Assembly (NCBI GenBank): GCA_041859045.1 | Contig: JBHELB010000012.1 | Location: 32,798 to 96,797, forward strand | Source: Candidatus Hydrogenedentales bacterium | GTDB taxonomy: Bacteria > Hydrogenedentota > Hydrogenedentia > Hydrogenedentales > SLHB01 | Direction of reading: 5' to 3' | DNA length: 64,000 bases | Part shown: piece by piece, positions 3,631-41,455 of the stretch | Position numbering within the stretch: position 1 is the stretch's first letter | How the letters are laid out: every line of letters starts with the position of its first letter | Translations under genes and position numbers: made by a program | Notes under the pieces: model-generated | What the model was told of the DNA's origin: nothing | What the model saw: the letters and a program-made list of their open reading frames with translations, nothing else | Database searches by the model: none

Positions 3631-6600
3631 ATGAGCCAGCAGACATCGCTGGAGGCGTTATGGGAGCGGAAGGCGTATCGCCGGGGATTCTGGGCACTCC
3701 TGGCGACGCAATTTCAGGGGGCATTCAACGACAACGCCTTCAAGCAGACGATCATCTTGTCGCTACCGGTGCTGTTGACGGCGCAGCATTACCCGGAATC
3801 GTGGCAGGGCTACGTAACGGGCGTGTCCACGCTGCTGTTTAACCTGCCGTTTATCCTGCTGCCGGGGATTGCGGGGGCACTGGCGGATCGCTACAGCAAG
3901 CAGAGCGTGGCGTTGGCCACCAAGTATTTCGAAGTAGCTATCATGGTCTTTGGGGCTGTTGCGTTCTATATCGGAAATCCGTACGCGATATGGGCGATGC
4001 TGTTCCTTATGGGCCTGCAGAGCACGCTCTTTAGTCCCGCGAAGTACGGCATTTTGCCGGAGACCCTCCCAGAAGGCCGTTTGTCTTGGGGCAACGGCGT
4101 CCTCGCGACGCTCACTTTCGTGGCGATCATTCTGGGTACGGGCGCGGTGGGCCCGCTGCTCGATCTGGCGGGCGGGAACGTCTATCTCATCGCGCTGCCG
4201 CTCATCGTGCTGTCGATCCTAGGCACACTCTCCGCGCGCTGGATCACACACCCGCCCGCGGCCGCGCCGGATCGTCCCTTGCCGTTGAACCCCTGGGCGG
4301 ACATGGGGCAGTACGTGCGCCTGTTCCTGGCCGATCGTTGGCTGCTGCTTACGATGCTTGGCATTACCTACTTCTGGTTCTGCGGGCAACTCATGATGAT
4401 GAACATCATCGAATTTGCCAAAGGCATCTCGTCGAACAACACCGGCATCTCGATCATGCTCGCGTCGCTCACGCTCGGCATCGGCGGCGGCAGCATGGCC
4501 GCGGGATATCTGTCGCGCGGACGGATCGAGGTGGGCCTTATCCCGCTTGGCGCGTTGGGGCTGTCGTTCTTCAGCGCGGTATTGGGCCTGAACACGGTGG
4601 GGCTGTGGGGCGGCTCCGCGCTCCTGTTTGCATTGGGATTCTTTGGCGGCATCTACGATCTGCCGATGCAGGCGACGTTGCAGCAGCGGAGCCCGGACAG
4701 CGTCAAGGGCGGCATGATCGCCGCGAACAATTTCTTCAATTTCGTCGGCATGGGCCTGGCCGCAGGGCTATTCATTCTGTTGTTTGGCGTGCTGCACGTC
4801 TCGCCGCGAGTCATTTTCCTGCTTAGCGCCGTGCTCACGCTCGCCGTGGGCATTTACATCTGCTATTTGTTGCCGATGTTCCTGCTGCGCTTCATTCTGT
4901 GGGTACTGGGGAACACGTTCTACCGCCTGACCGTCGCGGGCGCGCACCACGTACCGCAGAAAAGCGGCGCGCTCATCGTCGCCAATCACACGTCTTTCAT
5001 CGACGCGCTCGCGGTCATCGCGTCACTCGATCGCCCCATGCGGTTTCTGATGGACCATGAGATCTACGACCTGCCTTGGGTGCGCCCACTGGCGAAAGCG
5101 ATGAACGCGATCCCTATTTCGCCAAAGGACAGCCCACGCGAGTTGATCACCGCGCTCAAAACCGCCGCGAGCGCCATCGAGAATGGCGAGTTGGTTTGCA
5201 TCTTTGCCGAGGGGCAGATCTCGCGCACCGGCCAGCTGCTGCCGTTCCGAAAAGGATTTGAGCGGATCATGAAGGGCCTCGACGCGCCCATCATTCCCGT
5301 GTACCTCGATCAACTCTGGGGCAGCGTATTCAGCTATTCCGGCAACAAATTCTTCTGGAAAGTCCCGCGCAGTATTCCGTATCGCGTGACGGTCGCCTAC
5401 GGCGCGCCGATGCCGGGCGACAGCACGCCGCAGGCCGTGCGCCAGGCGATGCAGGAACTCGGCACAGAGGCGTTCCTTCTGCGCAAGCATCGTCAGCCCA
5501 TGTTGCATCGTGCGTTCGTGCGCAGCGTCCGGCGTAGGCCGTTCGCGTTGTGCATGGCCGACATGACGATTCCCAAGCTCTCGTATTTCAAAACCTACGT
5601 TGGCGCGCTCGTGTTTGCGCGCAAACTGAATGCGCTGCTCGACGATCACTCTATGGTCGGCGTCTTGTTGCCGTCCACCGTCGGCGGCGCGCTCACCAAT
5701 ATCGCGCTCCAATTTATGGGCCGGACGGCGGTCAATCTCAATTACACCGCCGCGCCGGACGCCGTCGCCTCCGCCGCGCGGCAGTGCAACATTCGTCACG
5801 TAATCACGGCGCACGCGTTCCTCGAAAAGGTGCCGATGGACGTCCCCGGCGAAGCGATCTATCTCGAAGACATCCGCAAAACCGTGACCGGACTCGACCG
5901 TATCACCGCGATGCTCATGGCGGTGTTTCTGCCGGTGCGCGTGATCGAGCGGCGTCTCGGCGGCCCGCGCAAGCGCTCGGTGGATGACCTCGCGACGATC
6001 ATCTTCTCGAGCGGCAGCGAGGGCGAGCCGAAGGGCGTGATGCTGAGTCATTTCAACATCAGTTGCAACATCGAAGCGACGCTGCAGGTCTTTCCGCATG
6101 AGGCCGGATTCGGCATGACGGGCATTCTGCCGTTCTTCCATTCCTTCGGTTACTTGGGCGGACTGTGGCTGCCGCTGTTTGGCGGGTTCTTTACGGTGTA
6201 CTACCCAAATCCGCTCGACGCGAAGACTGTGGGTTCCTTGATCGGCCAGTACCACCCGCAGTTCCTTATCGCCACGCCGACGTTTCTTCAGAACTTCATC
6301 CGCCGTTGCCTGCCTGAAGAAATGAGTTCACTCATCTACGTCGTGACGGGCGCGGAAAAACTCTCGCCGCGCATCCGCGAGGCGTTTCGGGCGAAGTTCG
6401 GCATCGAGCCACTCGAAGGCTACGGCACAACGGAATGCGCCCCGGTGGTGTCGGTGAACGTGCCCGATTTCCGCGCACCGGGCTTCTACCAAGTCGGCAC
6501 GAAGCACGGCACCATTGGCCATCCGGTTCCGGGCGTGAGTGTGCGCGTGATCGACCCCGACACCGAGGAACCACTGCAGGACGGCACTCCGGGACTTTTG

Positions 6601-7754: not shown

Positions 7755-9143
7755 CTACGCCGCCGCGTCCTTGAACTGCGCGATGAGCGTCTGAAGACTG
7801 GCCTTGGCGTCGCCAAACAGCATGCGCGTGTTCGGTTTGAAGAATAGGGGATTTTCAATTCCGGCGAATCCCGCCGCCATGGACCGTTTGAGCACGAAGC
7901 AAGTGCGGGCGCGATCCACTTCGATCGTGGGCATGCCGTAAATCGGACTGCCCTCGTCCTCGCGCGCGGCGGGGTTCACGACATCATTGGCGCCAATCAC
8001 AATCGCGACGTCGACGGTTTCCATCACGGGATTCACGTCGTCGGGCACAGCGAGCAACTCATACGGCACATTGGCCTCGGCCAACAGCACGTTCATATGC
8101 CCCGGCATGCGCCCCGCGACGGGATGAATACCGAATTTCACCTCGGCCCCATTGCGCTCGAGTATTTCGGCGAGTTCCCGCACGGCGTGTTGCGCTTGTG
8201 CGACCGCCATGCCGTAGCCCGGCACAAACAACACCGACTGCGCGGCTTCGAGCACGTAGTACGCGTCGTCGGCCGAAATGGGTGTCGCTTCGCCCTGCAC
8301 TCCGGCGCTCTTTTTCTTCGACGCCGATCCAAATCCGCTGAACAGCACGTTGCCCAGCGAGCGGTTCATCGCCTTGCACATGATGCTCGTGAGGATGATG
8401 CCGCTCGCGCCGACAAGCGAACCGGAAACGATGAGCACGGTGTTGCGGATGATGAAACCGGCGGCGCATCCGGCAAGCCCGGAGTAGCTGTTGAGCAGAG
8501 AAATCACCACGGGCATGTCTGCACCGCCGATGGGGATCGTCACCAGTACGCCCAGTACCAAAGACAACACAACCGCCGCGATGAACACAGGGTACAATTC
8601 CGCAGGATTTATGCAGAACGCCACGCCGCCGGCAATCAGCGCGGCAAGCACGAGCCCGTTCACGATCTGTTGGCCTCGAAAGAGGATCGGTTTGCCGGTA
8701 ATTTTCTCGGCGAGTTTGGCGTACGCAATCATGCTGCCCGAGAACGTCACGCCACCGATCAGCACGGCGAGGTAAATCGCAAGGACGGTGATGAAATCGC
8801 CCTCCGTCTCACGCGCGTGGATGCCGTTGTACTCATACCACCCGACCAACAGGCTTGCCAGACCGCCGAACCCATTAAACAGGGCGACAAACTCCGGCAT
8901 GGAGGTCATGGGGACGCGCAGCGCGGCGATCATGCCCGCCGTTGCGCCGAGGGCCACCCCCACCAAAATCCAGGTGTAAGACAAAATCCCTTGATCGAAC
9001 AGCGTCACGACGATGGCGAGCAGCATGCCCGTCGCGGATAGGATGTTGCCCCGACGCGCGGTGGCGGCCGAGCTCATCATCTTGAGGCCGAAAATAAACA
9101 GAATCGACGCGGCAATATAGCTGAGTTGTATAACAGTGGTCAC
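7755..9143 (-). CDS. pntB: NAD(P) transhydrogenase subunit beta
   Basis: 462 aa with an N-terminal membrane domain. The C-terminal dIII domain carries GYGMAVAQAQ...GIHPVAGRMPGHMNVLLAEA. Confidence 0.9.
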   Translation of the reverse strand: MTTVIQLSYIAASILFIFGLKMMSSAATARRGNILSATGMLLAIVVTLFDQGILSYTWILVGVALGATAGMIAALRVPMTSMPEFVALFNGFGGLASLLVGWYEYNGIHARETEGDFITVLAIYLAVLIGGVTFSGSMIAYAKLAEKITGKPILFRGQQIVNGLVLAALIAGGVAFCINPAELYPVFIAAVVLSLVLGVLVTIPIGGADMPVVISLLNSYSGLAGCAAGFIIRNTVLIVSGSLVGASGIILTSIMCKAMNRSLGNVLFSGFGSASKKKSAGVQGEATPISADDAYYVLEAAQSVLFVPGYGMAVAQAQHAVRELAEILERNGAEVKFGIHPVAGRMPGHMNVLLAEANVPYELLAVPDDVNPVMETVDVAIVIGANDVVNPAAREDEGSPIYGMPTIEVDRARTCFVLKRSMAAGFAGIENPLFFKPNTRMLFGDAKASLQTLIAQFKDAAA

Positions 9144-9436
9144 GACGATTTCCCCGGTTGTTTGCTCTTGAACATGGCCAGCATGCGATCGGTCACGAGA
9201 TAGCCGCCCACTACGTTAATCGTAGCCAGGGCCACTGCCGCCACGCCCAGCGCCGTCCCCAAGACCGAATCTCCCGCGCTGCCCGCGGCGACGATTGCGC
9301 CGACAATCGTGATGCCAGAAATCGCGTTCGAGCCGGACATCAGCGGCGTATGCAGTTGAGAGGGAACTTTCGAGATCAACTCGACGCCCAGAAAGATCGC
9401 CAGGGCGAAGGTGAAAAGCAACAGCATTGTAACCAT
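9140..9436 (-). CDS. pntA: NAD(P) transhydrogenase subunit alpha part 2 (membrane segment)
   Basis: 98-aa hydrophobic protein. Its end overlaps the pntB start and it sits directly downstream of the alpha-1 gene. This is the split-alpha arrangement. Confidence 0.8.
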   Translation of the reverse strand: MVTMLLLFTFALAIFLGVELISKVPSQLHTPLMSGSNAISGITIVGAIVAAGSAGDSVLGTALGVAAVALATINVVGGYLVTDRMLAMFKSKQPGKSS

Positions 9437-9439
9437 GAG

Positions 9440-10579
9440 TCAACTCCCTTTGGCTGCGTTACGGAAACGCTCATGCACAATCGCGCCGCTGTGCGTGATG
9501 AGGCACCCCTTCACGATCTCATCGTCGAGGCGTAGGTCCATCGTCTTCTTCTCCTTATCCCAGAACTCTTCGATTAAGGCGACAAGATTCGACGAGTACA
9601 TCTGGCTCGCGTGCGTCGCCACGCGTCCGGGAAGGTTGTGCAGTCCGAGCAGGCGCACGCCCTCGATCTCCACCTCTTTTCCAAGCTCGATCCCCTCGAC
9701 GTTCCCGCCCGACTCCACCGCAAGATCGACCACCACGCTGCCCGGGCGCATGCGGGCGATCATGTCGCGCGTGACGATCACGGGAGCGCGACGCCCAAAC
9801 ACCTGCGCGGTGGTGATCACGATGTCCGATTGCGCACAGACCTTCGCCATCCCCTCGCGTTGCAGCGCCTGCTGTTCCGGCGTCAACTCGCGCGCATAGC
9901 CGTCCTTGGTTTGACCCGTCTCGCCGAGATCGATCTTGACGAATTTCGCGCCTAGCGACAGCACCTGCTCTTCGACCACGGGCCGCGTGTCGAACGCTTC
10001 AACCCGCGCGCCCAGACGCTTCGCCGTTGCGATCGCCTGAAGTCCCGCCACGCCCGCGCCGATCACGAACACGCGCGCGGGACTAATCGTGCCCGCCGGC
10101 GTCATCATCATCGGCAGGATTTTGGTTAGCCGTTCCGCCGCGACGATCACCGCGACGTAGCCCGCGAGGTTCGCCTGAGAACTCAGGGCATCCATTTTTT
10201 GCGCGCGCGTGGTGCGAGGGATCATTTCCATGCTAATCGCGCTTATGCCCGCCGAAGCAAACGCGTCGAGCAGCGCCGACTCGTTAAACGGATCAAGAAA
10301 GCTTATGTGGACCGCGCCGCGCTTCATTTGCGCGGCCTCGACGAGCGTGGGCTTGCGCAGCCGCAACACGAGGTCTGCGCGCTCCAACGCACCGCCCCGA
10401 TCAGCGGTCACCGTCGCACCCACAGCGGCATACGCATCGTCGCGATGTCCCGCTTGGAGACCCACTCCGGATTCAACAGTCACGGTCGCGCCCAATTTCA
10501 CCAACTTCGACACACCCTCTGGCACGAGTGGAGCGCGAGACTCGTGCGCATCGGTCTCTTTCGGAACAAATACGTCCAT
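9440..10579 (-). CDS. pntA: NAD(P) transhydrogenase subunit alpha part 1 (alanine dehydrogenase-like dI domain)
   Basis: 379 aa. Contains a Rossmann motif VFVIGAGVAGLQA and MDVFVPKETDAHESRAPLVPEGVSKL. Confidence 0.85.
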   Translation of the reverse strand: MDVFVPKETDAHESRAPLVPEGVSKLVKLGATVTVESGVGLQAGHRDDAYAAVGATVTADRGGALERADLVLRLRKPTLVEAAQMKRGAVHISFLDPFNESALLDAFASAGISAISMEMIPRTTRAQKMDALSSQANLAGYVAVIVAAERLTKILPMMMTPAGTISPARVFVIGAGVAGLQAIATAKRLGARVEAFDTRPVVEEQVLSLGAKFVKIDLGETGQTKDGYARELTPEQQALQREGMAKVCAQSDIVITTAQVFGRRAPVIVTRDMIARMRPGSVVVDLAVESGGNVEGIELGKEVEIEGVRLLGLHNLPGRVATHASQMYSSNLVALIEEFWDKEKKTMDLRLDDEIVKGCLITHSGAIVHERFRNAAKGS

Positions 10580-26649: not shown

Positions 26650-27445
26650 GGTCATGAGCCTACCCTTCATGCAGCGCGCGCTGGTCGCGGGGTTATTGGT
26701 GGGGGGCTTGGCGGGGTTCTACGGTGTCTTCGTCACGCAGCGTGGGTTGAGCTTCATGGGCGACGGCCTTGCGCACGCCGCGTTTGGCGGCGCGGCGCTG
26801 GGGATACTCCTTGGCGTGGCGCCGTTGTGGGTGGCGGCGGCGTGGGCAATGGTGACGGCCCTGGCGATCGTCTGGGTGCAACATCAGGGGCGTCTGCGCG
26901 GCGACGCGGCCATTGGCATATTCTTTGCCGTGTCGATGTCGCTCGGCGTCGTGTTTTTGTCGAAGACCGAGTCGTTCACCGGCGATGCGTTCAACTACCT
27001 GTTCGGTTCGATCCTGTTTGTGACGTGGAGCGACGTGGCGGTGGGTGCCGTGTTACTGGCAGTGTCCTTGCTTCTGCTGCCGTTGTGGGGGCGCTGGGCC
27101 TATGCCACGTTCGACCGCGAACTTGCGCAGGCCGATCGGCTCAATGTCAATCGTTTGGACTACGTGCTCGCCCTCTGTGTTGCGGCGACGGTCGTCGTAT
27201 CCGTGAAAATCGCCGGCATTGTGTTGGTATCGGCGTTCCTGATCATTCCCCCGGCGACGGCCCGGTTCTTGGCGCGGTCTTTCTCGGGTATGACGCTATG
27301 GTCTGTTGGCCTTGGTATGGCCAGCGCCGCCCTGGGGCTTTGGTTTTCCTATGCCCAGGACTTGCCGACGGGCCCCGCGATGGTGCTGGTGCAAGCGGCG
27401 GCGTTTGTCTGCGCGCTGACATTTAGCCAATTTCGAAAACCTTGA
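26643..27445 (+). CDS. znuB: zinc ABC transporter permease
   Basis: About 267 aa with 8-9 TM helices. Its start overlaps the znuC 3' end. It is the third gene of the znu-type operon. Confidence 0.85.
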
Positions 27446-27856
27446 CTACAGGTCGAACAACACCCGCGCTTCCCATCCCGCTTCGTCCTGGCGAATTTCG
27501 AGTCCGTGCCGCGTAGCGGCTTTTACCTCCGTCTCCCGCTCGTCGGGCGTCACCTCATACCCTTCGAGATGGAGCGTCAGGGCGCCGTCCTCGTGCAAGG
27601 TCACTTCAAAATGGGACGCGGCAAAGTGCTGGACGTCTAGAAGGTAGATGAGTTCGCGCAGCACATGGGCGAGCGCCTCCTCCGGCGAGTCGGCGGGCGG
27701 CAGTGTAACGCGCTGCCTCAGCGCACGCTCCTTGCGCGGAACCGTCAGTGTGACGGCATAGAGCGCACGCGCCGCCGCCTCAGCCAGTTCCGCGAAGTCA
27801 CGCCCTCGACACCACGCCACAACGTCGGCGGTATGCGGTTCGAGGCGGTATTCCAT
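27446..27856 (-). CDS. archease-family protein
   Basis: 136 aa. The N-terminus MEYRLEPHTADVVAWCRG matches the archease HTAD block. Size and C-terminal pattern match the family. Its start lies 1 nt after the stop of the upstream radical-SAM gene. Confidence 0.8.
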   Translation of the reverse strand: MEYRLEPHTADVVAWCRGRDFAELAEAAARALYAVTLTVPRKERALRQRVTLPPADSPEEALAHVLRELIYLLDVQHFAASHFEVTLHEDGALTLHLEGYEVTPDERETEVKAATRHGLEIRQDEAGWEARVLFDL

Positions 27857-27857
27857 A

Positions 27858-29960
27858 CTACTCCGCGTGGTTAAGGAAGGTCAGGCCAAAGCGCAGGCCC
27901 ATCATGAACTCCGACCACAGCGCACGCGGCAGCTTCAGTAGATCGATCGCTCGGATCTTTCCTTCGCGCAGTCGTTGCAGCATGCCCGCTCGGAAGGCGT
28001 TTAACTGGCGACGGCGCGCGACCCAGTGAATGGCCATCGTTTCGAACCAAGTCAGAAGCCCTTGGTGCATATAGTCACGTGCAGCCACAACGTTGTCCCA
28101 AGTCGGACGCTGCACGTCGAGACTGCGAACATAAGCTTCGATTTCCGCGGCCTTCTCCCCCAGTCGTCTGCGCAAACGACGACGGCCGATCGCCGAGTTC
28201 TCGCCAAGACGCCGTAATTGGGCGGCCGCCGCGTCGAGCGTAGCGCGCAGTTCCTGCATAGCCACGTCGCACCGGCCCGCGAGACTGCTCTCCGTGACGC
28301 GCAACTGCATTTCGGTCCATGCCGCACGCAGTTCGGCGTAGGTGCGCCAGTGGGGGTCGTCGGCGCTGCGCGTGAGAAGCCAGATCTCCTGGAACTCAAA
28401 AAACAGCCTCGCGTATGTCTTTACGCCCCAAGCCAAATCCCGCGCGCGACGCCAGGCATAGCGCGGTACGGACTCCCGCGGATACTCGGGGCGACGCTCG
28501 CGGCGGTTCTTGAGACGAAAAACACCGGTCACCATCGGGTGCGTCTGCGCTACTGTCGAGTAGCGGTACCAGATGTAGGTGCAGAACATCTTCCAGTAGC
28601 GGTGACGAGGTGTGCGTAAGAGCGCGGTCACGATGCTCTCCGGGTTATACATCGCCTCGTACGCGCCCACAAAGGTCCGGCGCCATTCGCCCGGCGCGAA
28701 ACTCGGATGCCGAAACGTCTCGTGATTGCTGTCAAGGCTATTGAGGTCTGCGTCGATCGGCACGCGCTTTTTCACCATGCGCTTATGGTCGAGCGATCCC
28801 GGAAGCGGCGTCATCATGAAGAACGTCGCCATGTCCACCTTTAGGCTGTCCCGAAGCAAGGCGACATCCCGCTGGACGCTCACAGGCGTGTCGTGCGGCA
28901 ACCCGACAATGTAGGCGGCATGGACCAAGATATCGGCCCCGCGCCAAGTCTCCACCATCGCCTGGAAGTCACTCACCTGATTCTGCGACTTGCCGGTTGC
29001 CTGAACGTTGGCGGGGTTGACGGTTTCGAGCCCGATAAACACAAGGTAGCAGCCCGCCGCCGCGGCCTTCTCGACAAAACCGGGAATATGGTGCGCCTGA
29101 GTGTCAACCTGCATCATAAACCCAATTTCGAGACCGCGGGCGCGTAACGCGATCAACCCGTCGAGCAACGTCTCCCAAATAGGGCTCCGGGAGAAGTTGT
29201 CGTCCGTGAAAAAATAGAGCCGAACGCCGCGCGCGTAGTTCTCCTCGATACTCCGGAGGATGGACTGCGGACTGCGCGCGCGCATGGCGCGTCCCTGAAC
29301 GTTGATGATGGTGCAGAACGAGCAGCCGAATGGACAGCCCCGGCTGGTATCCACCGTTCCCATGTCCTTAAACACGAAATGACGCAAGTAGGCGTTATCG
29401 GGCTGCGGTACAGGGGCGTTCTCGAGCGACGGCGGGACATCGGCGCAATAAATGGGCTGCAGCGTCCCCGCCAGCGCGTCGGACAGGATGCTCTCGATAA
29501 AGCCAGGGGCCTCGGCTTCCCCCCGAATCAGGGTGACGCCATGATCGAGCAGGCGCTGCAATTCGGCTGTGGGCTCGTCGAACATCGCCAGCACGCCGCT
29601 GACGTGGAAGCCGCCGATCATCACACGAACCCCTTCGTCGCGCAGACGCAGCGCCAAATTCGCCGCACGGGGAAACTGATTGCTCTGGACGCCGACCAGC
29701 CCGACCAGGACTCCGCCGGGATTCCGGCGATGTGCGCGCACGATCCGGCTCATCGGCACCGTCTGAACCGTGTCATCGTAGGTTTCGACCGAAATCTCCA
29801 CATCGGAGAAGGCCTCCGAATGCGCGGCGTTCTCGGTCAACGTCTTGAGGACGCACAAGGAATTGGACGGCAACACCCCGCGCCAGTACCGCAGCACATA
29901 GCCGTCGTCGTCATATCGCGAGGGAAGGATGAAAAATACCTGGAGAGATTTATTTCGCAT
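27858..29960 (-). CDS. B12-binding-domain radical SAM protein (class B radical SAM; 700 aa with a long Arg/Trp-rich C-terminal extension)
   Basis: N-terminal B12-binding-like Rossmann region (VGVQSNQFPRAANLALRLRDEGVRVMIGGFH). Radical-SAM cluster motif CPFGCSFC. A roughly 250-aa C-terminal extension is beyond the core. Confidence 0.85.
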   Translation of the reverse strand: MRNKSLQVFFILPSRYDDDGYVLRYWRGVLPSNSLCVLKTLTENAAHSEAFSDVEISVETYDDTVQTVPMSRIVRAHRRNPGGVLVGLVGVQSNQFPRAANLALRLRDEGVRVMIGGFHVSGVLAMFDEPTAELQRLLDHGVTLIRGEAEAPGFIESILSDALAGTLQPIYCADVPPSLENAPVPQPDNAYLRHFVFKDMGTVDTSRGCPFGCSFCTIINVQGRAMRARSPQSILRSIEENYARGVRLYFFTDDNFSRSPIWETLLDGLIALRARGLEIGFMMQVDTQAHHIPGFVEKAAAAGCYLVFIGLETVNPANVQATGKSQNQVSDFQAMVETWRGADILVHAAYIVGLPHDTPVSVQRDVALLRDSLKVDMATFFMMTPLPGSLDHKRMVKKRVPIDADLNSLDSNHETFRHPSFAPGEWRRTFVGAYEAMYNPESIVTALLRTPRHRYWKMFCTYIWYRYSTVAQTHPMVTGVFRLKNRRERRPEYPRESVPRYAWRRARDLAWGVKTYARLFFEFQEIWLLTRSADDPHWRTYAELRAAWTEMQLRVTESSLAGRCDVAMQELRATLDAAAAQLRRLGENSAIGRRRLRRRLGEKAAEIEAYVRSLDVQRPTWDNVVAARDYMHQGLLTWFETMAIHWVARRRQLNAFRAGMLQRLREGKIRAIDLLKLPRALWSEFMMGLRFGLTFLNHAE

Positions 29961-30125
29961 AAGGCATGCTCCATCTTGTCTGATCGGTTGATCATAGCAC
30001 GTCCGGCGGAGGGGATCATATGGGAGTTTGTCGACTCGTCAGCGCGCCCCGTTGGGCGCCGCACACGGATTGACAGCTTTCGCATCCCGTGTTAGGGTAG
30101 CCGCCAGGCGCTTGCGAGAGGTGGC

Positions 30126-37943: not shown

Positions 37944-38807
37944 TCATGCGCCGCCGAGATCCAACTCTAACAGTACACCGCCTTGCGCGCACTCCGCAAC
38001 CGGCGAAAAACTTCGGCGATGCGCGGGGCACGGCCCCAAACGCCGCAGCGCCTCAAGGTGCGCCGCCGTGCCATAGCCCTTATGCTCGCCAAATCCGTAA
38101 CCGGGGTACTGATGATCGAGTTCGTGCATGACGCGGTCGCGGGTGACCTTGGCCACGATGCTCGCCGCGGCGATGGACTGCGAACGGGCGTCGCCTTTGA
38201 TGATGCGCTTGTGCGGCCAACGACAACCGGGAATCGTAAACCCATCGACGAGCAGAAAATCGGGACTCGGATCGAGTTGTCCCGCGGCCTGAACCATCGC
38301 GGAGTAGTTGGCGGTTTGGATACCCAGGAGATCGATCGTCTCCGGCGGAATCAGCACCACGCCGATGGCGTGTCCGCCTTGGCTTAGCTCGACAAAGAGC
38401 GCCTCGCGCTGTTCGGCCGTCAACTGCTTCGAGTCGTTTAGCCCCGGCACCGGGTGTTTCAGCACGACGGCCGCCGCCGCCAACGGTCCCGCCAAAGGCC
38501 CCCGACCCGCTTCGTCCACGCCGGCAATGCAACGGAAACCGCCATCAACCGCCTCGCGCTCGAAAGACATCATCTCCTCGATACGCGCCGTCTCTCGCGC
38601 CGCGCGATCCATTTGGCGAAGAACGGACTTGTAGATGGATTGGGCGCCCGGACGCGGATCGGTTTCGAGAGCGGCCAAGAACGCGTCGTCGTACGGCGGC
38701 CCCGCCGAAGCCCGCGCGCGAAGTTCGCTCACCCCTGGACGCTGTTCACCCTGTTCCTTCACGAAAGTCTCCTCGTCAATCCCAGGGGGTATTCTACGCC
38801 GACGCAC
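37944..38807 (-). CDS. rnhB: ribonuclease HII (ORF has a ~80-90 aa N-terminal extension; the real start may be internal, near 38570)
   Basis: AGVDEAGRGPLAGPLAAAAVVL catalytic block. The core resembles RnhB. The ORF extends about 90 codons upstream of the usual N-terminus. Confidence 0.75.
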   Translation of the reverse strand: MRRRRIPPGIDEETFVKEQGEQRPGVSELRARASAGPPYDDAFLAALETDPRPGAQSIYKSVLRQMDRAARETARIEEMMSFEREAVDGGFRCIAGVDEAGRGPLAGPLAAAAVVLKHPVPGLNDSKQLTAEQREALFVELSQGGHAIGVVLIPPETIDLLGIQTANYSAMVQAAGQLDPSPDFLLVDGFTIPGCRWPHKRIIKGDARSQSIAAASIVAKVTRDRVMHELDHQYPGYGFGEHKGYGTAAHLEALRRLGPCPAHRRSFSPVAECAQGGVLLELDLGGA

Positions 38808-38909: not shown

Positions 38910-39878
38910 TTATCCTTGCCAACGAGTACGGGCGCAACCCGCCGCGCCGATCACTCCGGCGTCGCCGCCGAGTTCGGCCAGCACGATCTGCGCGCGCTTG
39001 GCGGGTACCTCGAAACACTGCCTCGCCACCGTCTCGCGCAACGGCTCCAGCAGCAACGCGCCCGCCGCCGTCATGCCGCCGTACAGCACAATCTTCTCTG
39101 GATTCAGCAAGTTGATCAGACTCGCAATACCGCAGCCGAGATAACGCCCCGTCTCCGCGAGCACCCATTTCGCGAATTCATCGCCCTGGGTCGCCGCTTC
39201 GGAGATCATCTTGCCCGTGAGCTTGCTTGTGTCCCCTGCGCACGCCGTTGTCAGCGTCGTCGCGCGTCCCGCCTCGATCCCCTCGACGGCCGTGCGCACC
39301 ATGCCCGTCACGCTACCATAGGCCTCGAGGCACCCTCGCGCGCCACAACCGCACAAACGGCCATCGCGCACAATGCACAAATGCCCGGTTTCGGCCGCAG
39401 TGCCGTCAATGCCGCGCATGAGCTTGCCAAACACAATAAGGCCGCCGCCCACGCCCGTGCCGAGCGTCAGCATGCAGACCGTCTCCGCGCCGCGCGCCGC
39501 ACCCGACCAGAACTCGCCGTAGCAAGCGACGTTGGCGTCGTTCTCTACAAACACGGGAAATCCCATACGATGCGTCATCAGTTCGGCCAGCGGCACGTGG
39601 TGCCAACCGGGCAGATTGGGCGGCGTGTAGACAACACCGGTCTGCCAGTTCATCGGCCCCGGCGCGCCAATCGCCCCGGCGCACACGTCGGCGCGTGTCA
39701 TGCCCGCCTGGCTGAGCGCGCTGTCAATCGACGCCTCCATGGCGGCCATCACGGCCTCCGGCCCGCCCGGCGCGTTGGTTTCGCGCGAGTCACGCGAAAT
39801 AAGTTTTCCCTCTGCCGTCACCACCGCGCTACGCGCGTTGGTACCGCCCAAGTCCACGCCGATAAACACCTGACTCAC
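38910..39878 (-). CDS. glk: ROK-family glucokinase
   Basis: GVDLGGTNARSAVV ATP-binding start. ROK zinc motif CGCGARGCLEAYGS. The stop overlaps the gltX region. Confidence 0.8.
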   Translation of the reverse strand: MSQVFIGVDLGGTNARSAVVTAEGKLISRDSRETNAPGGPEAVMAAMEASIDSALSQAGMTRADVCAGAIGAPGPMNWQTGVVYTPPNLPGWHHVPLAELMTHRMGFPVFVENDANVACYGEFWSGAARGAETVCMLTLGTGVGGGLIVFGKLMRGIDGTAAETGHLCIVRDGRLCGCGARGCLEAYGSVTGMVRTAVEGIEAGRATTLTTACAGDTSKLTGKMISEAATQGDEFAKWVLAETGRYLGCGIASLINLLNPEKIVLYGGMTAAGALLLEPLRETVARQCFEVPAKRAQIVLAELGGDAGVIGAAGCARTRWQG

Positions 39879-41356
39879 GCCTTGACCTCCTGTACTGACT
39901 GAATAACTTCGGCGGCGCGTTCAAGACGCGCCAGACATTCCTCGCGCCCCAACAACTCGGCCAACTCGAACAACCCCGGGCCCACGCTCTTCCCCGTCAG
40001 CGCCAAGCGCGTGGGATGTACGTAATGCCCGAGCGAACCGCCAGACATCGCCACCAAATTTTCGAACGCGGCCTTGAGCGTGTCATGGGTCCACTCGGAG
40101 ACCGAATCGACCGCCGTACGGATAGCCTGCATGCGGGCAGGCGCCTCGGCGTTCTTCCAATGCTTATTGACCGCCTTCTCCTCATATTCCTGCGGCGTGG
40201 AGAAGAAGAAGTCCGTGTAACCGACAATGTCGGCGAGGGTCGAAATCTTCTCCTGGCAGATCGCGGCCATTTTCGTCAGCCATTCCGGCGATTTCGTCGA
40301 AGTATCCAACCCGGCGCGCTGCATGAACGGAATAACCCGGTCGCGCAGCTCTTCCGGAGACAATCGGCGCAGGTGCTGGCCGTTCAGCCACTGGAGTTTC
40401 TTCAAGTCGAACTTCGCGGCCGACTGCCCCAGACGGTCCAACGTGAACGCTTCGACCAGCTCGTCCCGAGTAAACAGCTCACGGCCTTCCTCGGCGGGCG
40501 TCCAGCCAAGCAACACCACGTAGTTGATCAGCGCCTCCGGCAGATAGCCGTCTTCGCGCCAATCGAGCACGTTCGCGCCACGCATACGCTTGCTGTACTT
40601 TCGGCCTTGCTCGTCGAGCACCAGCGGCAAGTGCGCGAACTGCGGCAGCGGATACCCAAGCGCCTGGAACAACAACACGTGCCGCGCCGCGTTCGTCAGG
40701 TGGTCGTCGCCGCGAATCACGTGCGTGATCTGCATCAACCCGTCGTCCACCACCACGGCGAGATGGAAAATCGGATCGCCGTTTGATTTCGCGATGATGA
40801 AGTCGTCTATCTCGCGGTTGTCGATGCGCACAACGCCGCGCACAAGATCGTTGATCTCGGTCACGCCCTCGGGTACCCGAAACCGAATCGCGTACGGCGC
40901 GTCGCCCATTGCGGCGATTTTCTCCGGCGACGCATCGCGCCAAGTACCGTCGTAACGGGGCGGACGTTTCTCCGCCGCGGCGCGCTCGCGCATGGCTTCG
41001 ATCTCTTCCGGCGTGCAGAAGCACTTATACGCCTTCCCCTCGGCAAGCAGGCGTTGGGCCTCGCGCACGTGCAAGTCGCGCCGCTGGGATTGACGGTACG
41101 GACCAAGTGCGCCTTTCTCCGGCTGGCCGCCGAATTCAGGGCCTTCATCCCAGTCGATGCCGAGCCACTGAAACCCGTCGCACATCGCGTCGGCGAATTC
41201 CTCGCTGCTGCGCTCGGCGTCGGTGTCTTCGAGCCGCAGAATGAACACGCCGCCGGTCTTGCGTGCGTAGAGCCAGTTGAACAACGCCATCTTGGCCGTA
41301 CCGATATGCAGAAAACCCGTCGGCGATGGCGCAATACGAACCCGGACCGTACTCAT
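39875..41356 (-). CDS. gltX: glutamate--tRNA ligase
   Basis: VRVRIAPSPTGFLHIGTAKMALFNW is the HIGH-region block. KYSKRM-like KMSKS region. The start is trimmed to MSTVRVR; the six-frame ORF starts 26 codons earlier. Confidence 0.9.
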   Translation of the reverse strand: MSTVRVRIAPSPTGFLHIGTAKMALFNWLYARKTGGVFILRLEDTDAERSSEEFADAMCDGFQWLGIDWDEGPEFGGQPEKGALGPYRQSQRRDLHVREAQRLLAEGKAYKCFCTPEEIEAMRERAAAEKRPPRYDGTWRDASPEKIAAMGDAPYAIRFRVPEGVTEINDLVRGVVRIDNREIDDFIIAKSNGDPIFHLAVVVDDGLMQITHVIRGDDHLTNAARHVLLFQALGYPLPQFAHLPLVLDEQGRKYSKRMRGANVLDWREDGYLPEALINYVVLLGWTPAEEGRELFTRDELVEAFTLDRLGQSAAKFDLKKLQWLNGQHLRRLSPEELRDRVIPFMQRAGLDTSTKSPEWLTKMAAICQEKISTLADIVGYTDFFFSTPQEYEEKAVNKHWKNAEAPARMQAIRTAVDSVSEWTHDTLKAAFENLVAMSGGSLGHYVHPTRLALTGKSVGPGLFELAELLGREECLARLERAAEVIQSVQEVKA

Positions 41357-41455
41357 GATGCCTCCCTTATAGCTGGTTCTCCGGACGGAGAAACAAGGGC
41401 ATACGGTACACGAAACGGGCTGTGCAATGCACATTGAAGCGCCGCGCCGTCGGTC

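Follow-up and report, generated by a model that had tools for sequence, protein, structure and literature searches.

The radical SAM-archease gene pair

The stretch of DNA analysed here, called the window throughout, comprises 64,000 nucleotides (nt; 61.3% GC) of contig JBHELB010000012.1 from a Candidatus Hydrogenedentales bacterium. On its minus strand, a gene for a radical S-adenosylmethionine (rSAM) protein of 700 amino acids (aa) is followed directly by a gene for an archease, a member of the family that activates the RNA ligase RtcB. An initial annotation of the locus, made from the sequence alone, had read the two genes as an operon in which the archease, out of its classical context, serves the rSAM enzyme. 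The pair is laid out as follows.

27858-29960, minus strand: rSAM gene, 700 aa, ATG start (open reading frame; PF04055; uncharacterised family of class-B-like architecture)
27446-27856, minus strand: archease gene, 136 aa, ATG start (open reading frame; full-length match to PF01951)
27857-27864, minus strand: gene junction, with GGAG at 27861-27864 within the 3′ end of the rSAM gene, the TAG stop codon at 27858-27860 and one spacer base at 27857

The junction sequence agrees with the initial annotation. The archease ATG (27854-27856) begins one nucleotide after the rSAM stop codon, the minus strand reading ...GCGGAG TAG t ATG, and the GGAG inside the end of the rSAM gene stands 4 nt from the ATG, a short yet usable Shine-Dalgarno spacing. 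An identical junction, GGAGTAGTATG, is found in a relative of 88% nucleotide identity (L177). The same archease, with the rSAM gene 1 nt upstream and an abutting convergent gene for an ABC-3 permease, was present in six independent Logan assemblies, which excludes an assembly artefact as the source of the rSAM-archease arrangement.

The upstream neighbour of the rSAM gene is a divergent gene whose product carries an N-terminal methylation motif (from 30126, plus strand). Downstream of the archease lies a convergent znuA/znuC/znuB operon. znuB, which encodes the ABC-3 permease, ends at 27445 and the archease stop codon occupies 27446-27448, so that no base separates the two convergent genes and there is no space for a terminator on either side. 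Because the divergent gene and the convergent znu operon bound the pair, the rSAM and archease genes form a self-contained, tight and co-directional two-gene unit, as the proposal of a two-gene operon required. The archease is probably transcribed together with the rSAM gene, and its translation is probably coupled to that of the rSAM gene as well. In L177 the sequence 3′ of the archease is unrelated to the downstream flank in the window, indicating a rearrangement breakpoint exactly at the 3′ end of the archease gene.

Archease and RtcB in the window and its relatives

The 136-aa protein matches the archease family PF01951 at 96.5 bits (cutoff 25), with residues 3-136 aligned to positions 1-136 of the 136-position profile, which bears out its identification; against the NCBIfam equivalog NF001617 it scores 65 bits, below the cutoff of 126. 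Activation of RtcB by the archease of Pyrococcus horikoshii requires His9, Asp12, Lys117 and Asp141 together with the C-terminal carboxylate one residue later (I142), and mutation of H9, D12, K117 or D141 abolishes it (Desai et al. 2014, PMC3973293). An archease was taken to be of the functional, RtcB-activating type if it had H-x-x-D near its N terminus, Lys within EVKA(A/V)T(Y)H and Asp as its penultimate residue. In the sequence alignment, the window archease keeps all of the activation residues, which make up the metal site (H8, D11, K112 and D135-L136-stop). D11, K112 and D135 were invariant among 86 aligned archeases, and H8 was found in 80 of them. Residue 116 (27509-27511) is Arg in the window and Tyr in 81 of the 86 (EVKAATYH/KAATYHG motif). 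A 91%-identical relative shares this substitution, Y116R, as do the unrelated archeases of four loci, L132, L148, L149 and L167, of which L149 has RtcB adjacent.

Between the window and L177 the ratio of nonsynonymous to synonymous substitution rates (dN/dS) for the archease is 0.11, and both reading frame and junction are intact. Given this low ratio, the window archease is under purifying selection and hence a working gene. The protein is best explained, on its conserved residues, as an ordinary archease, a cofactor expected to promote the guanylylation and turnover of RtcB. Indeed, it belongs to the same PF01951 family, and has the same essential His/Asp/Lys/Asp and C-terminal carboxylate, as the archease of the archease-RtcB operon for tRNA splicing and RNA repair (PMC3973293; PMC4604427), and in most close relatives of the window archease RtcB follows directly, as in that operon. 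The window differs in that rtcB is neither adjacent nor anywhere within the 64 kb and in that the archease is coupled to an upstream rSAM gene. A tblastn search of the window with two RtcBs (PF01139) of Hydrogenedentota gave a best match of 24.6 bits at E≤10. RtcB is thus absent from the window, as had been reported, which means that none lies within 27-34 kb of the pair.

We sampled the relatives of the pair from both sides. Of 80 genome loci sampled without bias at species level by their rSAM homologue, only three (L009, L010 and L012), all from Hydrogenedentota, had an archease gene after the rSAM gene; the other 77 had none. RtcB came after the archease in all three (PF01139, 355-570 bits). 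In L010 the RtcB match is split over two frames (L010:8585-10020; 8585-9517 and 9532-10020), a frameshift in the contig of a metagenome-assembled genome (MAG) that is either an assembly error or a pseudogene. Among further homologues, one of 65% rSAM identity (P0003) has an rSAM gene overlapping the archease by 11 nt, DUF2007 next in order and RtcB nowhere in 7.6 kb; another (P0005) has the order rSAM-(245 nt)-archease before the contig ends, and in two (P0016 and P0004) the rSAM gene stands alone.

The second sample consisted of the 80 nearest archease relatives from a metagenome scan. The 17 closest (39-47% identity), which probably come from Hydrogenedentota, had an rSAM gene directly upstream in 14 cases and lacked it in one (L098, an archease-RtcB pair); in the remaining two the upstream sequence was too short. 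RtcB was directly downstream of the archease in 11 of these 17 loci (adjacency was recorded at L089, L091, L093-L097 and L099-L101), and RtcB after the archease was also found at L086. Among the distant archeases (L105-L167; 29-36% identity), none of 63 had the rSAM gene and 46 of 63 had RtcB adjacent, the classical operon. The pairing of rSAM and archease therefore recurs in related genomes, as the initial annotation had expected, and is no one-off juxtaposition. The finding of RtcB after the archease in 11 of the 17 closest loci, and in L009, L010, L012 and L086, speaks against its further proposal that the archease had left the classical context to serve the rSAM protein. In a neighbour-joining (NJ) tree of archeases, the rSAM-linked ones form one clade; in the NJ tree of rSAM proteins, the archease-linked ones fall within one Hydrogenedentota-type clade, with unlinked ones interspersed.

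Measurement of the junctions revealed two configurations, the rSAM-archease gap and the archease-RtcB gap being inversely related. In configuration A, the rSAM-archease gap is 40-127 nt and RtcB follows the archease tightly (L009, L010, L089, L091, L093-L097 and L099-L101). Configuration B has an rSAM-archease gap between -11 and +12 nt; here the match to RtcB begins 563, 595 and 3477 nt past the archease stop codon (L086, L012 and L104), or RtcB is missing from the neighbourhood (the window, L084/L102/L103 and L090). L084, a sister locus from Hydrogenedentota MAGs (L084/L085 lineage; GCA_029974275.1 and GCA_022706165.1) in which rSAM and archease overlap by 11 nt, has the tRNA-modification genes queA and truA just upstream of the pair and a DUF2007 gene 15 nt after the archease on the same strand (L084:835-2634 and 5940-6383); no RtcB lies within 7-8 kb in L084/L102. 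In L104, a 739-aa glycoside-hydrolase-like gene (GHL6) on the opposite strand stands between archease and RtcB (L104:7409-10884) and appears to have been inserted into an archease-rtcB pair. What lies upstream of rSAM varies too: some loci have tyrS-epimerase there, L084 has queA/truA, and the window, L091, L093 and L104 have genes unrelated to these.

Those configuration-B loci that entered the rSAM tree group together there, the window being sister to L084. This grouping suggests that the tight junction arose once and that the RtcB linkage was then progressively lost. In the archease tree, the window and L084 are again sisters, and L012 and L090 fall elsewhere.

One of the loci, L090, bears directly on whether the two genes depend on each other. 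In this metagenome contig (L090:1269-2523) the rSAM gene is reduced to a remnant covering only residues 422-698. It starts right after the stop codon of a T2SSE gene, and at 1585-1587 an in-frame TGA takes the place of the invariant W527. Directly behind it come an intact archease (2113-2523) and then IlvD, with no RtcB within 5.5 kb. The archease is thus independent of the rSAM protein, since it stays intact beside this remnant and since L098 has archease and RtcB without the rSAM gene. The rSAM protein, in turn, appears to need no archease, because 77 of the 80 genome loci lack one, P0016 and P0004 are stand-alone and the family has no shared partner (see below). These distributions argue against an obligate rSAM-archease partnership. 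Together with the retained RtcB-activation residues, the 77 archease-free loci and the dead rSAM gene of L090 also tell against an archease that serves the rSAM enzyme.

The radical SAM protein and its family

The rSAM protein is divided into three domains.

29451-29960, minus strand: N-terminal alpha/beta Rossmann-like domain, B12-binding-like, residues 1-170 (AlphaFold2 secondary structure; Foldseek)
28761-29375, minus strand: rSAM core barrel, residues ~196-400 (PF04055)
27861-28700, minus strand: C-terminal all-helical, strongly basic domain, residues 421-700 (family-conserved; no Pfam model)

Its assignment to the radical SAM enzymes was upheld by PF04055 (49.5 bits, cutoff 29.5, residues 205-364) and by the CX3CX2C cluster motif CPFGCSFC (29313-29336, residues 209-216), whose C209, C213 and C216 are invariant in 120 sequences. 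In the same sequences, G116, G117, F118, H119, V120 and G122 of a GGFHVSG motif in the N-terminal domain are invariant; TIGR04013 aligns on residues 65-250. The AlphaFold2 model (pLDDT 92, pTM 0.90) consists of an alpha/beta domain (1-170), the rSAM barrel and seven long C-terminal helices (425-700). Foldseek matched it best to AprD4, TsrM, CysS, MgmA, TokK, MiaB and OxsB, its barrel matching solved rSAM structures and the alignments to AprD4 (TMt 0.70), TsrM, TokK and OxsB spanning both N-terminal domain and core. A search of the PDB with the family profile likewise gave AprD4, TokK, TsrM, MgmA and CysS.

The protein had been labelled a class-B, that is cobalamin-type, enzyme. In architecture and fold it does resemble that class, and we regard its modelled architecture as class-B-like; the cobalamin part of the label found less backing, since the B12-binding family PF02310 gave no match at E≤0.1 and the 22 NCBIfam matches, to class-B-type or methylthiotransferase families, were all far below their cutoffs (for example, 54 against 600 bits). 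AprD4 is a cobalamin-independent dehydratase, so cobalamin use by the rSAM protein cannot be assumed and cobalamin binding is putative. No cobalamin riboswitch was found in the window. One member of the family neighbours a gene for a corrinoid adenosyltransferase, an anecdotal observation.

The Arg/Trp-rich C-terminal extension noted in the initial annotation is real (residues 421-700 have a pI of 10.7, a net charge of +20, 15.4% Arg and 4.3% Trp). It is, however, not unusual, as the domain is present in all 120 closest homologues. The suggestion that it binds nucleic acid gained nothing from a fold search with the domain alone, which returned generic four-helix bundles and thus no functional lead, and in which no nucleic-acid-binding homologue was recognised. 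A Pfam scan of the rSAM protein found no TRAM, PUA, THUMP or other RNA-binding domain.

The class-B rSAM enzymes AprD4, TsrM, TokK, CysS, MgmA and OxsB, the best profile and fold matches, share with the window protein the N-terminal Rossmann-like domain, the CX3CX2C barrel and the presence of a C-terminal domain. They are, however, only 11-19% identical to it, and none of the matches has an equivalent of its basic, helical C-terminal domain of 280 residues. Methylthiotransferases of the MiaB/RimO/MtaB type have the same three-domain layout and are fold matches at E ~1e-10. In contrast to them, the window protein lacks the auxiliary-cluster Cys of UPF0004 (its only other invariant Cys is C304) and a TRAM domain (no Pfam match), scores 13-22 bits against NCBIfam cutoffs above 250, and has a helical bundle as its C-terminal domain.

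The family is large, with at least 7996 homologues at E≤1e-10, the best 120 of which are all ~700 aa long. In the genome collection it spans at least ten phyla, including Hydrogenedentota, Planctomycetota, Nitrospirota, Acidobacteriota, Omnitrophota, Sumerlaeota and Bdellovibrionota. All named close homologues of the window protein come from Candidatus Hydrogenedentota, at odds with the affiliation to Planctomycetota first suggested. Genes with N-terminal methylation motifs, such as the divergent neighbour, are found in Hydrogenedentota and Planctomycetota alike.

Neighbour clustering and a Pfam tally revealed no operon partner shared across the rSAM family; partners were lineage-restricted only. 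Among 68 same-strand adjacent open reading frames at the 80 genome loci, the tally counted other rSAMs (8), TilS (6), GFO/IDH/MocA oxidoreductases (3), thioesterases (3) and archease (2). The tRNA and RNA genes tilS, hfq, queA, truA and tyrS sometimes adjoin rSAM homologues across phyla, and other rSAMs, thioesterases and sugar oxidoreductases do so as often. In Acidoferrales and relatives (L055, L066, L071, L072, L074, L079 and L083), the homologue lies on the same strand 40-195 nt upstream of tilS-hpt-ftsH, and in some other Acidobacteriota loci hfq is upstream of it. In six loci (L022, L024, L025, L026, L045 and L082), a smaller rSAM gene (~260-370 aa, PF04055) on the same strand follows the 700-aa homologue after 1-26 nt, which suggests a two-rSAM operon in those lineages. 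A role in sugar modification, with an AprD4-like enzyme acting beside an NAD epimerase or GFO oxidoreductase, was set aside as a family-wide account, the two partners occurring at only 2 and 6 of the 80 unbiased loci. An anti-phage defence system was also rejected: the only PADLOC match, of 31 bits to the candidate model PDC-M51A, is a generic rSAM one, and the archease has none.

Upstream of the rSAM gene there is one candidate promoter.

30015-30042, minus strand: sigma-70-like promoter match, CTGACG-16-TATGAT, ~55 nt upstream of the rSAM ATG (weak)

This was the one sigma-70-like site found, against 1.0 expected from shuffles, and it is not significant alone; the promoter and terminator scan of the locus was uninformative. 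No tRNA genes and no Rfam elements, riboswitches included, were found in the 64-kb window. Also on the minus strand, ~8-11 kb upstream of the rSAM start, are a gene for RNase HII (37944-38807) and one for a class-I Glu/Gln tRNA synthetase (39875-41434). Unrelated plus-strand genes intervene between these two and the pair, to which the two have no evident link.

Origin and function of the pair

We consider it probable, if far from certain, that the window archease is a conventional RtcB cofactor stranded in the transcription unit of the rSAM gene, its client rtcB being encoded elsewhere in the genome. The window most likely represents a derived state of an rSAM-archease-rtcB string, a direction of evolution that we infer. 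In the ancestral string of this lineage, an archease-rtcB operon would have lain directly downstream of a housekeeping-type rSAM gene. In one sub-clade, the archease start would have closed up against the rSAM stop codon and the archease would have joined the rSAM transcription unit. Insertions and rearrangements would have pushed rtcB away, until in the window and its sister lineage it was out of the neighbourhood. The archease would still be functional, acting on an RtcB encoded elsewhere in the genome, and the rSAM protein would be a class-B-like enzyme that is active irrespective of the archease. The two proteins presumably do not interact physically.

Several observations weigh against this account. 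The existence of an rtcB elsewhere in the genome is an assumption, and the window itself has none. The adjacency of rSAM and archease outlasts both that of archease and rtcB and the upstream neighbours of rSAM across differing flanks, and between the window and L177 it is kept despite the changed downstream flank; neutral synteny is usually lost at 40-55% protein identity. In the NJ tree, moreover, the archeases of the two RtcB-unlinked lineages, the window and L084, have longer branches, which could reflect changed constraints.

Because the adjacency outlasts the flanks, because these archease branches are long and because the family occasionally neighbours tRNA or RNA genes, we retain as a minority hypothesis, unlikely as it seems to us, that the rSAM protein, the archease and RtcB work as a single module for RNA repair or modification in Hydrogenedentota. 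The rSAM enzyme would then act on RNA, for example to install or reinstate a modified nucleoside in a tRNA or rRNA resealed by RtcB, or to process damaged ends; the archease would serve RtcB, and the window would keep two of the three genes in one operon with rtcB elsewhere. Such a module would account for three co-directional, closely spaced genes at no fewer than 12 loci with differing flanks, among them tyrS-epimerase upstream and unannotated open reading frames, a gene for a thiamine pyrophosphate-dependent enzyme or glycoside-hydrolase genes beside the string, and for an rSAM gene upstream of 14 of the 17 closest archeases (one lacking it, two with insufficient upstream sequence). It would also suit the strongly basic helical C-terminal domain, the resemblance of the three-part layout, with its flavodoxin/Rossmann-like N-terminal domain, rSAM core and C-terminal substrate domain, to that of the RNA-modifying MiaB/RimO enzymes, present among the fold matches, and the tilS, hfq, queA, truA and tyrS genes that sometimes neighbour the family in other phyla. 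However, the association does not extend beyond one clade and has the look of vertical inheritance: both trees congruently pair the window with L084, and the linked archeases make up a single clade. Most family members, other Hydrogenedentota included, have neither archease nor RtcB nearby; in configuration A a spacer of 40-127 nt separates the rSAM gene from the tight archease-rtcB pair; the C-terminal fold has no nucleic-acid-binding homologue, nor the protein a TRAM, PUA, THUMP or other RNA-binding Pfam domain; and the genes beside family members are a mixed set that includes other rSAMs, thioesterases and sugar oxidoreductases. The broader claim that the Hydrogenedentota rSAM protein is a component of the archease/RtcB RNA-repair pathway, or that the archease doubles as its cofactor, strikes us as quite doubtful. 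If it were true, the rSAM enzyme would act on RNA sealed by RtcB, and the window would show the core pair held together by selection after rtcB had moved.

The reading first proposed, that the rSAM enzyme has gained the archease as its accessory factor or chaperone independently of RtcB, now appears very unlikely. A precedent exists: the archease of Pyrococcus modulates a tRNA m5C methyltransferase, improving its specificity, and the two genes are sometimes in the same operon (Auxilien et al. 2007, as cited in PMC3973293). As cited there, this is a case of an archease aiding a SAM-using nucleic-acid enzyme other than RtcB; the partner, however, is a classical Rossmann-fold methyltransferase, whereas the window rSAM protein is known from sequence and a model, and its contact with RNA or archease is hypothetical. 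Recruitment would also fit the tight coupling (a 1-nt gap, or in L084 an overlap of 11 nt) where RtcB is absent from the surrounding 27-34 kb in the window and 7-8 kb in L084/L102, the purifying selection on an archease in an RtcB-unlinked lineage, the retention of the junction while the downstream flank changes and the longer archease branches of the two unlinked lineages. Against it, the metal-binding and RtcB-activation residues are all kept, as they should be were RtcB still the client, RtcB is retained 0.5-3.5 kb away in sister lineages that share the tight junction, the archease of L090 is kept beside a dead rSAM gene and most members of the rSAM family work without an archease. Nor did a literature search, which missed the main survey of RtcB neighbourhoods, find an rSAM gene immediately upstream of archease-rtcB or any link of archease or RtcB to a radical SAM partner.

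Finally, the archease is almost certainly not a decaying relic left without current function by the loss of rtcB, a reading to which the absence of RtcB from the window, the longer branches and Y116R in the Tyr-dominated KAATYHG motif might be thought to lead, but which is largely refuted by the dN/dS of 0.11 against L177 with frame and junction intact, and which is further contradicted by the presence of all invariant family residues, by the full-length Pfam match at 96.5 bits and by the occurrence of Y116R in L149, where RtcB adjoins.

If the conventional-cofactor reading holds, the locus would be a case of operon break-up in which the gene for a cofactor, the archease, is captured by a neighbouring transcription unit while its client rtcB moves away, and a warning that a single tight gene junction is poor ground for reading function. 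The analysis also leaves two leads. One is a very large, uncharacterised rSAM family that combines a class-B-like core with a helical C-terminal domain, conserved and highly basic; the other is the persistent attachment, in one phylum, of such an rSAM gene to archease-rtcB. Should that attachment prove functional, it would add a step undescribed in the papers searched, a radical SAM reaction, to RtcB-based RNA repair.

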